Below, piece by piece: positions 6,729 through 53,283 of a DNA stretch of 64,000 nt (positions are counted from its first letter, which is position 1; every line of letters begins with the position of its first letter). The notes beneath the pieces were generated by a model. It saw only the letters and a program-made list of their open reading frames with translations. It did no database searches and was not told the origin of the DNA. This stretch comes from a virus (Duplodnaviria > Caudoviricetes), in the IMG/VR virus record IMGVR_UViG_3300033463_000056, positions 1 to 64,000 of that record. The stretch is one strand, 5' to 3'. Made by a program: the position numbers and the translations under genes.

Positions 6729-9700
6729 CTACATGACATCAACACATCGGAGCATATTCTCTCGCTGTTCAGGTGTTTTCGCCTCCCATTTCGCTTCAAC
6801 GCTCGGACCATAATATCCAACAAGTGCTTCTTTCTGCGTATCAGAAAGCAAGTCCCAAAAGCGCTTTACCTGCTCTCCGACTTTCTTCTGTTCTCCGGGG
6901 CCAAGTTCGTCTTCCTCGACAGGCATCGATTTGAACAAGGATGTTTCCGGTTTGAAAGTATCAATCTTCGGAGCCTCAAGAGTTCCGGATTCAGGAGCCG
7001 GACCGACAACGGGTTCTTCGGTAGTGGCTTTCACCTCCGCCTCGACGGTGGAAGGAGTTTCCTTATCAAGCAATTCCTTCTGGTCATCGGTGGAAACGAA
7101 TTCTCCGTCTTCGAAATGAGTGATATAGACATCAACCTGCTTCGGAAGAAGTTTCTTCGCATTGGAAGTGATAAAGCCTTTCTTGATGAAGCTTTCCAGA
7201 TTCTGTCTCGGATTCAGATCCATCGAGACACGCTCTTCGGCGAACTTGTCAAGCAGCTGATTATAGTTATCGTGACTGAGCCAGAAGCCGTCAACCTCAC
7301 CATCCTTCTTGTTCGCAGAATTCCTGTCATATCTGAGCCAAGGCTTTCCTTCCTTATCAATGATGAAGGTGAAGAATCCGTGAGTGAGGTCGACATATTT
7401 CCGAAGACCATTCGCTACGAGCTGATGCAGGTTCTTATTCTCCTCATCGAGAATTTCCTGCTTCGCTGCATCGTCAGCAGCCTGTTCAACTTCATTGAAG
7501 AACCTTCCTGCAAGACCCTCTATCTCGGACAGATGACTTCTGATCGCCTTGAAGGTAGCATCCTGTCTGGTTGTCGCATTCTTCGGAGTGAAGTGCTCGA
7601 TGCCAAGACGAATCGGCTTGTATCCGCCGTTTCCATCATTGGCAAGATAATACAATGCGCCGCGAAGTTCGTTCCTTCTTTGCGGACTCATATTACGCCA
7701 AGCGTAAATAGACCTGGCTGCGCTTGAATTACCACGAAGCGTTTCGAACAAACCGTCTCCGTTCACCCACACGATAGGAGCGCTTGCGTCATATCCTTCA
7801 ATCCCAGGGACAATCTGACCATTCTCTTCGCGTGCTATAGGACGTTCACCTGCGTAGTTCTCGGAATAATCATAATCAATGATACCGTCCCGTTTCCCCC
7901 AAACAGTCGCCTGCTTCGGGAAAACATATTCGCCGTCCTTATAACCGGCTTTCTGGAGACTGATATCGAAAGCATCCAAGAAATCCTTCAATCCCTTGTA
8001 CTGGTTGATTCCTTCACCATACCGGCGCATCACATTGAAGATATAACGCTGACCATCTTTCTCGACAGCCATAAAAATGACGGGCTTTCCGTTATCATCG
8101 TTATATCCCTCAAGCGCTACGAGCTGAACCTTGTCATCGACAGCGACTTTCGTCACTGCATTCGTCCAGGCATTATCAGAAACGAGCTTCTGAATAACCC
8201 TGTCGCCCATTCTCGGACCAATAAAATCGACAAGTTGCTGGATAGCAATCTTGCGTTTCTCATCCTTGTCCGGATCTTTTTCGGAAATCTCGAAGAAAGC
8301 TTTTGCCGACTCGACGGTGAATTCCGGAATTGCCGTCTGATAGTATTGTTTGCGACCACCGCGATCAACTTCGCTTTCTGCTTTCTTCTTCTGGGGTGGA
8401 GTATATGGCGGAGTATCTACTACTTCGTTCAAGAGCTGTTCTTTCGTAGGACTCGTAACCTTATCCTCGATGACGGTTGTTTTCGAAGTAATGGGTCTCG
8501 GCTCCTTATGAATCATATAGGTCTGATTGGTCAGACTGACGCTCCAATCACGGGAGCCAGTAAGATACATTCGGACATCACCATTCTTCCCAACAGCGAA
8601 TTCCTTGACGGTGAACTCCTCAACGATATCATTGGTCTTGTTCTCGTCATAGGTATAAATCTTTTCACCGACAGTCCAAGTGCGACCAGCGGCATCGACT
8701 GCCGTCTTCATTTCCTGGTCAACAGTAGCTGGTTTCTTCTTCTGCTCGACAGCCTTGCTGGATTCGGCGGAAGGTTCAGTCCCACTTCCCTGAACAGTAG
8801 TAGCGGCAGGAGCGGGCTCCGGTTCGGGAGTAGGATTTTCGCCTTGTCTTCCGGAAGAAGCACCACGGATATCGCCAAGTGAATTCATCGCGGCAACGAC
8901 TTTCGCGACAGCCTTATCATAAGTATCTTTCGACACTTCCATAATACCGGCACGACGGCTCAAAGCTGCATCGAAGTTGGGGGCATTCACGGTCTTCTCA
9001 CGCTCCTTCGCCATCCACTGCTCGTAAGTGTCTATTCTGGAAGCATCAACCAAATCGGAAGCGTCGACAGCTTCGTCGAAAAGCTTGTCGATGATACCAG
9101 CTTCAATACCGGAGAGCGTCCCACTCTGCTTTACATAAGCCTTTCGCAAATCGGAATAAGCGTCGTGCAAATCAAGGAACTGCGATACGAACTGATTCTT
9201 ATCCTTTGCTTTGCGGAGCTTGTCAATGAATTCGCCGACATCGCCGCCTTTCTTTTTTCTGGCGACATTATACTGCGCCTTGACTCCAGCGAGATTGATA
9301 TAGGATTCGAATTCCTTTTCGGCTTCTTCTTTCTTCTGCTCCTCTACAACCTTGTCCGCATTCTGTGCTTTGTTAGCGAATTCTTCAGAAGATAATCCCT
9401 TGAGCGTCAGGAGTTTATCGACAAACGCCTTGCGGTCAGCGGCAATCTTCTTCAGATCTTCATATTTCTGTTGAAGCGCAGTATCACCAGAAGCATCAAT
9501 CTCGGATTTAAGTTTTGAGAGAACGGGGATAACGCCGAATTCTTCAATCAGATTAGGATTAAGCGGAATCCGGATATTGGTAAGAACCTCGGCAAGGGTA
9601 CTGCGAATATTTTTCGCCTGCTCGAGACTTTCCTCCTTCTTGATGAATTTGCCTTTATCGTCGCGGGCGGAAAGAATCTTGATTTGCGGCTCGACAGATT

Positions 9701-50503: not shown

Positions 50504-51256
50504 TTAAGTTGGTATCGTCCCGTCCTCGTTCAGTTCGTATATCTTACTTGCATAGTCGCTCCATTTTGCCGTCGATTTGTATGCCGCTAAAATAGAGTGG
50601 TCGGAGGAATATGGGACATATATCTTTTTCTTCCCGCTACCACTCCCCGCGAATGTATTTGTTGCCGGAAGATTTGGCGGTGATGTCCGTCTAACGACGA
50701 CATTCCCAAGGTTGGACGTATCGTAGAATGATGCATTTGCGATGCTCGTCACCTTGCTGGGGATTTCAATGGAGATAAGCGCCGAGCATTGGCGGAAGGT
50801 GCTGTCGTTTATCGTCGTAAGGTTTGGAGGAAGGGTTATGCTCCGCAAGGCCGTACAGCCCCGGAACGGGGAGTTGGGGAGCGTCTTTACGCCCGTGAAA
50901 TATACAAATTCATCAAACGACGTTATTGCCGTGTTATAGCGGAAATTAGTCCCGATCGAAGTGACTGCGGCAGCCTGGCTTGGTTTCAGCCCGATCCCGT
51001 CACCCCACTTTGTCGCACATATCTGCTCGACGGTGGCGTCTGCGAACACAATGTACGGTTCCGGCACCCCTTCCTGATTCACCGTCAATTGGCGTATTAT
51101 ACTCCCCGTTGCGAACGTAACAACCTTTGTCCGGGTTGTGTAACCCGTGTTTGCATCGGAGGTGACGGCCACGGTCTGGTCGCCCTCCGATGCGTTGCGG
51201 GTGAGGTAGATGTTGTCTCCGGACCCGTCCCCCCAGGGTATGGTCGTAACAGCCAT
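50504..51256 (-). CDS. BACON-like N-terminus plus BspA-type leucine-rich repeat protein
   Basis: VTSDANTG...RT...LTVNQEG; ITSFDEFVYFTG; FRGCTALRSITLP and FRQCSALISIEIP repeats. Confidence 0.8.
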   Translation of the reverse strand: MAVTTIPWGDGSGDNIYLTRNASEGDQTVAVTSDANTGYTTRTKVVTFATGSIIRQLTVNQEGVPEPYIVFADATVEQICATKWGDGIGLKPSQAAAVTSIGTNFRYNTAITSFDEFVYFTGVKTLPNSPFRGCTALRSITLPPNLTTINDSTFRQCSALISIEIPSKVTSIANASFYDTSNLGNVVVRRTSPPNLPATNTFAGSGSGKKKIYVPYSSDHSILAAYKSTAKWSDYASKIYELNEDGTIPT

Positions 51257-51562
51257 TTAGGAGATCGTCCAGTTGGTGTTGGAGGAGACGGAGACACTTT
51301 GAGCCGGAGTACCAGCAGCAGGAATCGTGATAGTGGTCGGGCTGATGGTGAGGTAAGCGTCGCCAGCGGCTTGGGTAATCGCGCAAACGACGGCATCGGA
51401 ACTACCGCTATTCGGCGTAACCGTCAATTGGCTTGTCTTGGAAGAAATCGTTGTATTCTCGGCTATGTTCGAGAACGTGATAGAGAATGTGTATTGTTGG
51501 GTAGCGCCGGGGTCTCCCGTAATGGCCGAGCCGATGTAGGTGATGATTTCTCCTATTTCCAT
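51257..51562 (-). pseudogene. C-terminal half of a split BACON/Ig-like structural gene, fused to a foreign 10-aa start
   Basis: AITGDPGA...ITQAAGDAYLTISP...VSSNTNWTIS is a typical C-terminal half; MEIGEIITYI looks unrelated; a matching N-terminus lies at 55534-55605. Confidence 0.6.
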
Positions 51563-51580
51563 GGTATTTGTTCTTTATGT

Positions 51581-51598
51581 GGGGGCCCGGAGGCCCCC
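51581..51598. repeat. Perfect GC hairpin without a T-tract
   Basis: GGGGGCC-CGGA-GGCCCCC. Confidence 0.7.
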
Positions 51599-51614
51599 TG
51601 GTCCTGATCTGCTA

Positions 51615-51831
51615 AGTCAGTCAATTAGGGCCGAAAGTGGGTTACTTCTTCGTGGTTGTATAAGTTGGCGTGGAAAGTGGCTTGAACATCTTACAATGCG
51701 TTCCACAATTCCGTATATCACACCCGGCAAGGCAACCCTTTTCGTAGTCATACGGGATGCCGTTGTTATCCGTTACCACCCTTCCGAAGAAGTGTTTGCA
51801 GTTTATCATAGTCATTCAATTAGGGCCGAAA
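51615..51831. repeat. 22-bp direct repeat pair (one mismatch)
   Basis: AGTCAGTCAATTAGGGCCGAAA (51615-51636) and AGTCATTCAATTAGGGCCGAAA (51810-51831). Confidence 0.9.
51642..51815 (-). CDS. 57-aa Cys-rich peptide bracketed by the direct repeats (not in ORF track)
   Basis: MTMINCKHFFGRVVTDNNGIPYDYEKGCLAGCDIRNCGTHCKMFKPLSTPTYTTTKK*; fills the inter-repeat space almost exactly. Confidence 0.55.
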   Translation of the reverse strand: MTMINCKHFFGRVVTDNNGIPYDYEKGCLAGCDIRNCGTHCKMFKPLSTPTYTTTKK

Positions 51832-51840
51832 TTGATTGAG

Positions 51841-53283
51841 TTATGCCATTACGGAATCCATATAGGCGATTCTCTGCGTCACCCAATCGGCGATGATGGC
51901 GATTGAATCTATATCTCGGTTATCACCGATATATCCGGGGCAATCCGGCCACCTGGAGGCGTTCCGTTTATAGGCATCAAAACCTACCCACTTCGCCCAT
52001 TCATCAAACAGGCCGATGATGTTCTCCGGGGTGAAGATACCGATGGACTGCAACTCCTTGTACCGAGCCTTGATTTCATCCGCATAGATGCTTTCAAGTG
52101 CGACAAACCACGGCATAGACCGGGCCTTCTGGTTGTAGGTGTTGCTTGTTGGCGGATAGTACGGGGTGTAAATGCCGGAAGTCTTTCCACCGAATCCGTT
52201 GAACGAGTTGTTCATATCGTACACCATAGGCGAGAAATGAATCCCGTCCCAAGTGCCGTACAGGGTGTTTCTTGACCACGAATCCCACACATTACATACA
52301 TACATCATAAGATAGCAGTCAATGAAATCCTGGATGTTCAGCAACCCTTCAATGGTAGATTTCGGAGTGGATGCGGTGATGCCCCACAGGGCGGTCTCCC
52401 AATTCACGATGGCGGTCTTGACCGGGCCATCATTCGGCTCTACACCCTCCGGGAATGACGGGTTTCCACTATCGGATTTCGGGTTGCGGATTTCAACACC
52501 CGTCCAGGAGAACGCACCACTATTGGAAAACCAATTCTGTGCGTCAAGGAAGATGTGGTCGGTGTCGCTCTTGTTGAACTGATAATTGTCGCGGTGTTTC
52601 TTCAACCGCCACACATACAACCCCCAATAGACACCGTTGATGTAGAGTTCAATGGGGAAACCGTCCACCCGGCACAATGCGTTTCCTCCGAAGAATCCCC
52701 GGTAGTTGCCTCCGAAATCGTTGTGGAACAGGAACGGTCTTTCCTCCGTTGCCTTGCGTGTCATATAAATCTGCTCCATCATTTGGTTGCAGACCCAATC
52801 CCGGCACTTGATGAAGTCCTCATAAAATGCCTTGAGATGGAACGAATCAAACTCCAACCACTTGCCGAACTTGTGCTTGTTGGCGGTGTCAATGCCGAAG
52901 TTCTTTTGTGCATCGGCGAGAGATGTATTGCCTTGATAGTTGATTTCTATCCTGTCCGTGAAGTTGATGGACTGCGATGAAAATTCAAGGATTACATCGT
53001 CCGTGTCCACACTACCAACAGGGTCTCCTGCTGCGTATGGGTTTGTGGTGTAGGTCAATGGGGCAACCGTGTTGTTGGTTGCGTCCGGGGTCAGCAGTTC
53101 CGAAACGATGTTCACCTTCGGGACATCGGTTGGAAGTCCGAAGTCCATCGCCCTCCGGGTTGTCCCCGACCCGACCCCGGCAAGGATTTCTTCAAGAGTT
53201 CTTCCGTTCCCGTCAATGACGGCCTTCGTGGAAGTCCTCGGATATACGGGATTCTCGTTCCCGTCTTGGTATTGTACTATCAT
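51841..53283 (-). CDS. CotH-family atypical kinase with a fibre-anchor-like N-terminus
   Basis: QGNTS....QKNF, DGFPIELYINGVYWGLY, DSWSRN, PMVYDMNNSF, WVTQRIAYMD. Confidence 0.8.
   Translation of the reverse strand: MIVQYQDGNENPVYPRTSTKAVIDGNGRTLEEILAGVGSGTTRRAMDFGLPTDVPKVNIVSELLTPDATNNTVAPLTYTTNPYAAGDPVGSVDTDDVILEFSSQSINFTDRIEINYQGNTSLADAQKNFGIDTANKHKFGKWLEFDSFHLKAFYEDFIKCRDWVCNQMMEQIYMTRKATEERPFLFHNDFGGNYRGFFGGNALCRVDGFPIELYINGVYWGLYVWRLKKHRDNYQFNKSDTDHIFLDAQNWFSNSGAFSWTGVEIRNPKSDSGNPSFPEGVEPNDGPVKTAIVNWETALWGITASTPKSTIEGLLNIQDFIDCYLMMYVCNVWDSWSRNTLYGTWDGIHFSPMVYDMNNSFNGFGGKTSGIYTPYYPPTSNTYNQKARSMPWFVALESIYADEIKARYKELQSIGIFTPENIIGLFDEWAKWVGFDAYKRNASRWPDCPGYIGDNRDIDSIAIIADWVTQRIAYMDSVMA

Follow-up and report, generated by a model that had tools for sequence, protein, structure and literature searches.

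The 64,000-nt stretch analysed here (the window, G000) covers the first 64 kb of a virus record of 94,278 bp that is complete and has terminal repeats (IMG/VR IMGVR_UViG_3300033463_000056). The phage's MCP is 52% identical to the MCP of Bacteroides phages DAC15 and DAC17 and of other crAss-like phages, and its portal and terminase match PHROG head and packaging families (portal protein, terminase large subunit). Coordinates are those of the plus strand throughout, and the genes of the locus lie on the minus strand. The segment of interest is a small gene cassette in the late operon. Upstream of it the operon contains two collagen-like fibre genes, an uncharacterized 339-aa gene and a CotH-domain gene; downstream come a 101-aa Ig-like ORF, a gene with BACON and BspA-LRR domains and small membrane proteins. 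The parts of the locus, in the order in which they are read on the coding strand, are as follows.

51841 to 53283, minus strand: gene of a 480-aa CotH-domain protein, with which the fibre module ends; Pfam CotH, E 2.4e-20; 9 nt separate its TAA stop from junction copy A
51810 to 51834, minus strand: junction copy A; exact core 51816-51831; its 3' part and ATG travel with the cassette, and the homology to contig L025 begins inside the core
51642 to 51809, minus strand: cassette gene, 55-aa Cys/His-rich protein (57 aa from the ATG at 51815); homologues, conserved Cys/His, dN/dS 0.14
51615 to 51639, minus strand: junction copy B, with the exact core at 51621-51636 and no ATG; the 5' part moves with the cassette, and the 3' part matches the resident site of contigs L104 and L147
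51581 to 51598, minus strand: perfect G/C hairpin with a 7-bp stem and a 4-nt UCCG loop (coding strand); fold of the region -25.6 kcal/mol, z -2.7
51257 to 51580, minus strand: 18-nt leader and chimeric 101-aa ORF; the first ~12 codons resemble a holin-like start, the rest is Ig/BACON-like

Junction A is followed by an ATG within 6 nt. Junction B begins 5 nt past the stop of the small ORF and is separated by 27 nt from the hairpin, after which the leader and the ATG of the next ORF are reached. The initial annotation had described two 22-bp repeats, the first directly after the CotH stop and each beginning 5-9 nt past a stop codon. Both observations hold (9 nt behind CotH, 5 nt behind the small ORF), although the repeat is 25 nt long with 23 of 25 positions identical, and contains an exact 16-mer whose two copies are 195 bp apart. 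Both copies have the hallmarks of the junction family described below, i.e. the core CGGCCCTAATTGA with yTGA, the orientation of the genes and an adjoining upstream stop; the extensions of the 16-mer at the two local copies read aTGA and cTGA. They are the only copies in the window, and the rest of the genome adds three good and two degenerate copies at 84261-84693, on the same strand as the small genes there and each 5-7 nt upstream of the ATG of a 56-71-aa ORF. This 84-kb array is flanked by the genes of a 160-aa HTH protein (genome 85283-85765; L028:5283-5765) and of a 157-aa protein (83538-84011; L028:3538-4011), which are common to some carriers of the motif; 30-44% homologues are found near junctions in non-crAss carriers. 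No Rfam-type RNA family was matched in 51300-52000.

The Cys-rich 57-aa ORF noted between the repeats is a real gene. Its homologues P0006 and P0007 are 79-85% identical to it and start at its second ATG (51809), giving 55 aa, and a metagenome homologue in contig L026, which lies behind a GDSL-esterase fibre gene, is ~76-78% identical. Compared with L026, the small ORF has a dN/dS of 0.14, and the antisense 99-aa frame is broken there by three stops. The conserved Cys/His positions suggest a small metal-binding fold. The 55-aa protein has no Pfam or PHROG match, its Atlas matches are all below 0.9 and its AlphaFold model, at pLDDT 47, is unusable; the similarity to a 57-aa ORF of L017 (E 0.03) is a hint only. 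Neither the peptide patterns of the small protein nor those of CotH, searched in viral contigs, nor blastn against GenBank phages uncovered a close relative of the locus. In L026 (1780-2121), the cassette-gene homologue has lost its stop; its frame stays open across a short alternative junction (A-CCCC-AA-ATG type) and continues in the next small ORF, so that a 113-aa fusion results.

At 51581-51598, the perfect GC hairpin without a T-tract is present as first described, and a terminator scan called no intrinsic terminator. The hairpin 18-mer occurs 50 times in viral contigs and only 8 of these occurrences have the motif upstream; it is common in phage contigs that are unrelated, mostly GC-rich and devoid of the motif, for which reason we rejected it as a general part of the motif. 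It is a generic phage intergenic hairpin; at this locus it belongs to a fibre-to-lysis junction that came from a donor phage. The holin-like start that the 101-aa ORF resembles is the gene start that follows the hairpin in L021 and L147, and nucleotide identity to L021 (82%) extends over 51525-51603 only. The segment from the second fibre gene to the hairpin looks like a module from small temperate phages; in the closest crAss-like relative the fibre region has neither junction nor hairpin. Several smaller features of such regions are recorded here for completeness. The 250-aa BACON/LRR gene has its ATG immediately behind the TAA of the 101-aa ORF and in frame with it (51248-51265; 50504-51562), and a short orphan BACON-like start lies at about 55605. 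Contig L109 (1478-1559) carries the G/C hairpin in two identical copies, 64 nt apart, between junction and holin-like gene, and L011 (2345-2425, minus strand) has about seven ACTGCG-containing repeats in a 10-11-nt phase between junction and G/C hairpin.

Both repeats represent a 26-base gene-junction sequence that hardly varies and is common to different gut or rumen-type Bacteroidota phages. We collected 71 distinct copies from related and unrelated phage contigs, so that the sequence is not peculiar to this genome, and the consensus (~26 nt) reads TTYCGGCCC, TAA-n-TGA-n-TGA, nTTA and then often ATG. The exact 16-mer is found in 21 IMG/VR stretches and a one-base variant in 27 more. As a control we used 185,579 cellular genomes, which hold 69 exact 16-mer matches. 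The yTGA continuation follows 19 of 23 exact matches in viral contigs and 0 of 69 in cellular genomes, and on this ground the viral matches are taken as a true family and the cellular ones as chance; the full junction was found in none of the 185,579 cellular genomes. Five other complete genomes carry the motif, namely one close crAss-like relative (MCP 87%) and four 63-72-kb phages without that MCP, and complete genomes hold 1-5 copies each. In many phages, different small ORFs stand between tandem copies, which supports the repeats as the boundaries of cassettes.

Conservation spans -2 to +23 of the 16-mer, and the anatomy of the block is that of a stop followed by a start. The stop of a co-oriented upstream ORF adjoins 59 of the 71 copies (end at -11 to +20), and the internal TAA, TGA and TGA serve as the actual upstream stop 10, 10 and 5 times, so the upstream ORF is terminated by the junction in whichever frame it arrives. 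Three-frame stops are kept in 58 of 71 copies (82%), whereas only 0.08% of windows drawn at random have them. The positions that vary are the single spacer bases, and of 19 changes at the central base of either TGA codon, 14 convert TGA to TAA. The retention of the three-frame stops and the predominance of TGA-to-TAA changes indicate that the stops themselves are under selection; such selection leaves the invariant CGGCCC in front of them without explanation. On the downstream side, an ORF of at least 30 aa begins at +16 to +26 in 31 of 71 copies, in 18 of them at exactly +23. A G/C hairpin follows copy B at the present locus and 7 of the 71 copies in all, and the array copies have none; in five loci the hairpin starts exactly 21 nt past the core.

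Two groups of contigs deserve separate mention. In L012 (1740-1850), L016 (near 7560-7650), L017 (14709-14878) and L026 (2123-2413), a canonical promoter of the Bacteroidetes type (TTG, 20 nt, TATATTTG) stands behind the junction, followed by a conserved small gene with a GG-x-RPG-x-GRK N-terminus, which may encode a ribbon-helix-helix regulator. In L098, L100, L107, L110, L111, L120 and L121, contigs of ~20-36 kb from other samples, the core lies inside a longer, nearly identical palindromic context (GGAACAA arm, core, C-run, complementary arm); these sequences may be a distinct element using the same core.

Evidence that the cassette moves as a unit comes from metagenome contig L025, which matches G000 51617-51825 at 99% over 209 bp and has unrelated flanks on both sides. 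Where G000 has CotH, L025 has a polysaccharide deacetylase gene upstream of the cassette, and downstream it continues with a further four small ORFs bounded by junctions, for which the nearest relatives were found in three other contigs. The homology stops inside the cores of both junctions A and B, so that the crossovers map to the 13-nt invariant core, and the 3' half of junction A and the 5' half of junction B go with the cassette. The counterpart is provided by L104 and L147, whose fibres are 75-82% identical to the G000 fibre and in which a solo junction with the 3' half of copy B leads directly into the same hairpin and on to holin-like and endolysin genes. These contigs resemble empty-site alleles, and the pattern is the one expected if a one-gene unit had been inserted by crossovers within the core. 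For metagenome contigs, chimeric assembly at shared cassettes could in principle occur; the cassette must still exist in two contexts. The same behaviour is seen beyond this locus: when all sequences were compared with one another, 44 out of 215 internal end points of homology lay at most 25 nt from the motif, for an expected share of 1.3% of bases, and both replacement and insertion end points fall in junctions when phages are compared. These observations make it fairly probable that the small gene between the repeats was passed between phages by recombination inside the junction.

A one-off local duplication, or a target-site duplication from insertion of the small gene, would fit the presence of just two copies in the window. 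The same sequence, however, also borders other genes, both at 84 kb in this genome and in dozens of phage contigs besides, and L025 contains the same cassette with the same ends in a different context. Both forms of duplication are refuted by these findings, and we attach virtually no probability to them.

The junction also bears on the fibre genes themselves. Eight loci share the order fibre gene, junction and hairpin, and in these nucleotide homology begins at -2 to -17 of the motif, directly behind upstream genes that are unrelated to one another (CotH, esterase, phosphoesterase and collagen fibres). Since homology starts at the junction behind unrelated fibre and enzyme genes, the junction is also the downstream edge of variable receptor-binding genes. 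The initial annotation had suggested that fibre modules are swapped at the repeats, and this idea stands in so far as the motif lies directly behind variable tail-fibre and enzyme genes and homology starts there; it fails for the local 4-kb fibre module, which the motif does not capture. The downstream breakpoint of that module lies past motif and hairpin, about 12 codons into the holin-like gene.

It had further been suggested that the repeats are sites of a dedicated site-specific system, acting either by integron-like capture of cassettes or by inversion of a fibre segment. The layout of single ORFs, each followed by a conserved site, agrees with such a system, as do the crossovers in the 13-nt core and the tyrosine integrase that is present in every complete carrier tested, often no more than a few kb from an array. 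Other features of the locus argue against it. The att-like character attributed to the motif is lost with the finding that it contains no internal palindrome or foldable structure. The partner sites predicted in the fibre genes are likewise absent: the best match has 8 mismatches in 20, which is the level of shuffled sequence, and the two proposed junctions have 10-11 in 20. A search for inverted copies (at most 7 mismatches in 24) found none, all copies being direct and co-oriented with the genes. The peptides that had been read from the plus strand and compared with the fibre junctions are correctly translated, but they are those of the antisense strand, and the two fibre paralogues merely share their N-terminal ~120-155 aa (residues 1-120 versus 4-158).

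The complete genome gave no match to a resolvase family, i.e. no resolvase or invertase, and no RVT_1 match that would indicate a reverse transcriptase. Its single tyrosine integrase (genome 86133-87458) lies 34 kb from the cassette, runs convergently to the 84-kb array and contains an arm domain of the Bacteroidetes type; it lends no support to a dedicated recombinase. A search for a shared reader of the motif returned the integrase as the only protein common to all motif-bearing phages, yet the homologues in the five other complete carriers are only 21-69% identical while the motif is invariant. Three specific candidates were accordingly rejected: an invertible fibre segment of the Gin/Cin/Min or shufflon kind (no inverted copies, fibre genes at the shuffled level, no resolvase), a diversity-generating retroelement (no RVT_1, and a 25-nt repeat that is not a template/variable repeat pair) and integron attC (no internal complementarity, no adjacent divergent IntI/attI, the sole integrase far away). 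A dedicated site-specific system in any form seems to us very improbable.

Instead, the explanation that we favour, and hold to be reasonably probable, is that the repeats are a portable gene-junction of ~26 nt and that the single-gene cassette was gained by short-homology recombination at this junction. The junction consists of a T-rich start, the invariant CGGCCC, the three-frame stops, a short spacer and usually a start codon. The 195-bp unit would be a single-gene cassette that entered a resident solo junction, in the order fibre gene, junction, hairpin and lysis genes, by crossovers inside the invariant core. The three-frame stop closes any ORF that comes to lie upstream, the fixed ATG would supply the start of the incoming gene, and cassettes with well-matched junctions would spread further, which may itself keep the junction conserved.

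Exchange would most likely proceed by general short-homology recombination, during co-infection or in lysogens. Every tested carrier genome has an integrase homologue, which suggests that the carriers are temperate and would meet in lysogens. The phage's recombination genes match Sak4-like (E 7e-43), exonuclease VIII (E 1e-19) and NinB (E 3e-15) proteins; a Sak4-like annealing protein, a RecE-like exonuclease, NinB/Orf and the tyrosine integrase map to genome 70905-71582, 81421-82446, 88177-88650 and 86133-87458, respectively, and this set is predicted to be the crAss-like phage's toolkit for lysogeny and recombination. From these genes we infer that the first three are the candidate enzymes of the exchange; a Sak4-type gene was not detected in four of the five other complete motif-bearing phages. 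Other points weigh against homology as the whole account. It leaves the invariant CGGCCC and the fixed distances to ATG and hairpin unexplained, and a 26-nt stretch in which only 13 positions are invariant is a short substrate if homologous recombination is to be efficient. The invariant core and fixed distances would rather suggest a sequence-specific reader, which could be a protein, an RNA polymerase, a ribosome or a nuclease.

The same fixed distances raise the question of whether the motif is primarily an expression signal, with recombination as a by-product. It could be a promoter with transcripts starting near +23, in which case the mRNAs of the small genes would be leaderless and those of the lysis genes would carry a 5' hairpin; alternatively, it could be a site of RNA processing or of termination and reinitiation. 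In favour of this, 18 copies have their ATG at +23 and five independent loci have the hairpin at that distance, and the stop codons show selection at the level of translation. Promoters of single-subunit polymerases such as that of T7 form a continuous conserved block, which the ~25-nt block of the junction resembles, and conservation across unrelated phages would fit a shared, host-level reader. Against it, the motif has no match to a sigma-70 hexamer and, by eye, no Bacteroidetes -33/-7 consensus; complete genomes have 1-5 copies only, several copies are followed by a Bacteroidetes-type promoter of their own, and no polymerase is common to the motif-bearing phages. As a primary function, expression is in our view a possible but rather doubtful reading. 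An added expression role is compatible with the portable junction, since the fixed distances leave room for it: the junction may also act as a leaderless or 5'-hairpin promoter or as a processing or restart site.

A bolder reading, which we consider unlikely, is that the junction serves as the address tag of an accessory-gene pool linking unrelated temperate Bacteroidota phages, the crAss-like ones included, and is read by a putative sequence-specific nuclease or recombinase or by a polymerase making leaderless transcripts. If true, this would be a system of integron-like exchange whose linker, a stop/restart sequence, is not palindromic.

Among described systems, the PeSL cassettes come closest, the promoter-early stem-loop mobile regulatory cassettes of T4-type phages (PMC2839356, PMC4122927). 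Like the junction, PeSLs are short conserved intergenic units that reach from an upstream stop to a downstream start and are placed before small ORFans in plastic regions; the end points of indels and replacements between phages fall in the units, and an inserted one-gene unit ends up flanked by two direct copies (PMC2839356, PMC4122927). Both are sometimes paired with a G/C stem-loop, although most junction copies lack one. Among PeSL units, recombination gives rise to mini-circles as well as to indels and replacements. PeSLs differ in that they contain a host sigma-70 promoter consensus and occur at about 50 per genome within one phage family (PMC2839356, PMC4122927). The junction has no host promoter consensus, neither a sigma-70-type early promoter nor the Bacteroidetes -33/-7 pattern being present in the motif, occurs at 1-5 per genome, hardly varies between unrelated phage lineages and includes a three-frame stop of its own. 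Integron attC cassettes share with the junction units the arrangement of promoterless single ORFs with a conserved 3' site, arrayed and common to several replicons. In contrast to the junction, attC sites have an imperfectly palindromic sequence, take on their folded form as single-stranded DNA and depend on an adjacent IntI for recombination; the junction has no palindrome, no adjacent integron-type integrase, and copies at two genome positions.

Two further classes of boundary sequence invite comparison. In lambdoid phages, mosaic joints fall at short conserved boundary or linker sequences between genes, and accessory genes (morons) are inserted between tail-fibre and lysis or lysogeny genes. 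The junction is like these boundaries in lying at mosaic joints; they are, however, weakly conserved and lineage-specific, whereas the junction has 13-16 nt that are invariant across lineages and a defined stop/start architecture. The start-associated sequences and stoperators of mycobacteriophages are asymmetric 13-nt motifs, oriented with transcription and located at stop or start codons in short intergenic gaps. They resemble the junction in asymmetry, orientation and stop/start placement and differ in copy number and role, being present in tens of copies per genome within one cluster and acting in translation or repressor binding; they are not known to serve as points of cassette exchange.

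A portable junction of this kind would provide a sequence-defined route by which single accessory genes move between unrelated gut or rumen Bacteroidota phages, including crAss-like phages, and receptor-binding genes probably move by this route too. The junction would also be a searchable marker for cataloguing the mobile small-gene pool of these phages, whose members are candidates for anti-defence, exclusion or fibre-associated functions. Finally, its architecture suggests a natural, frame-independent gene linker for phage engineering.
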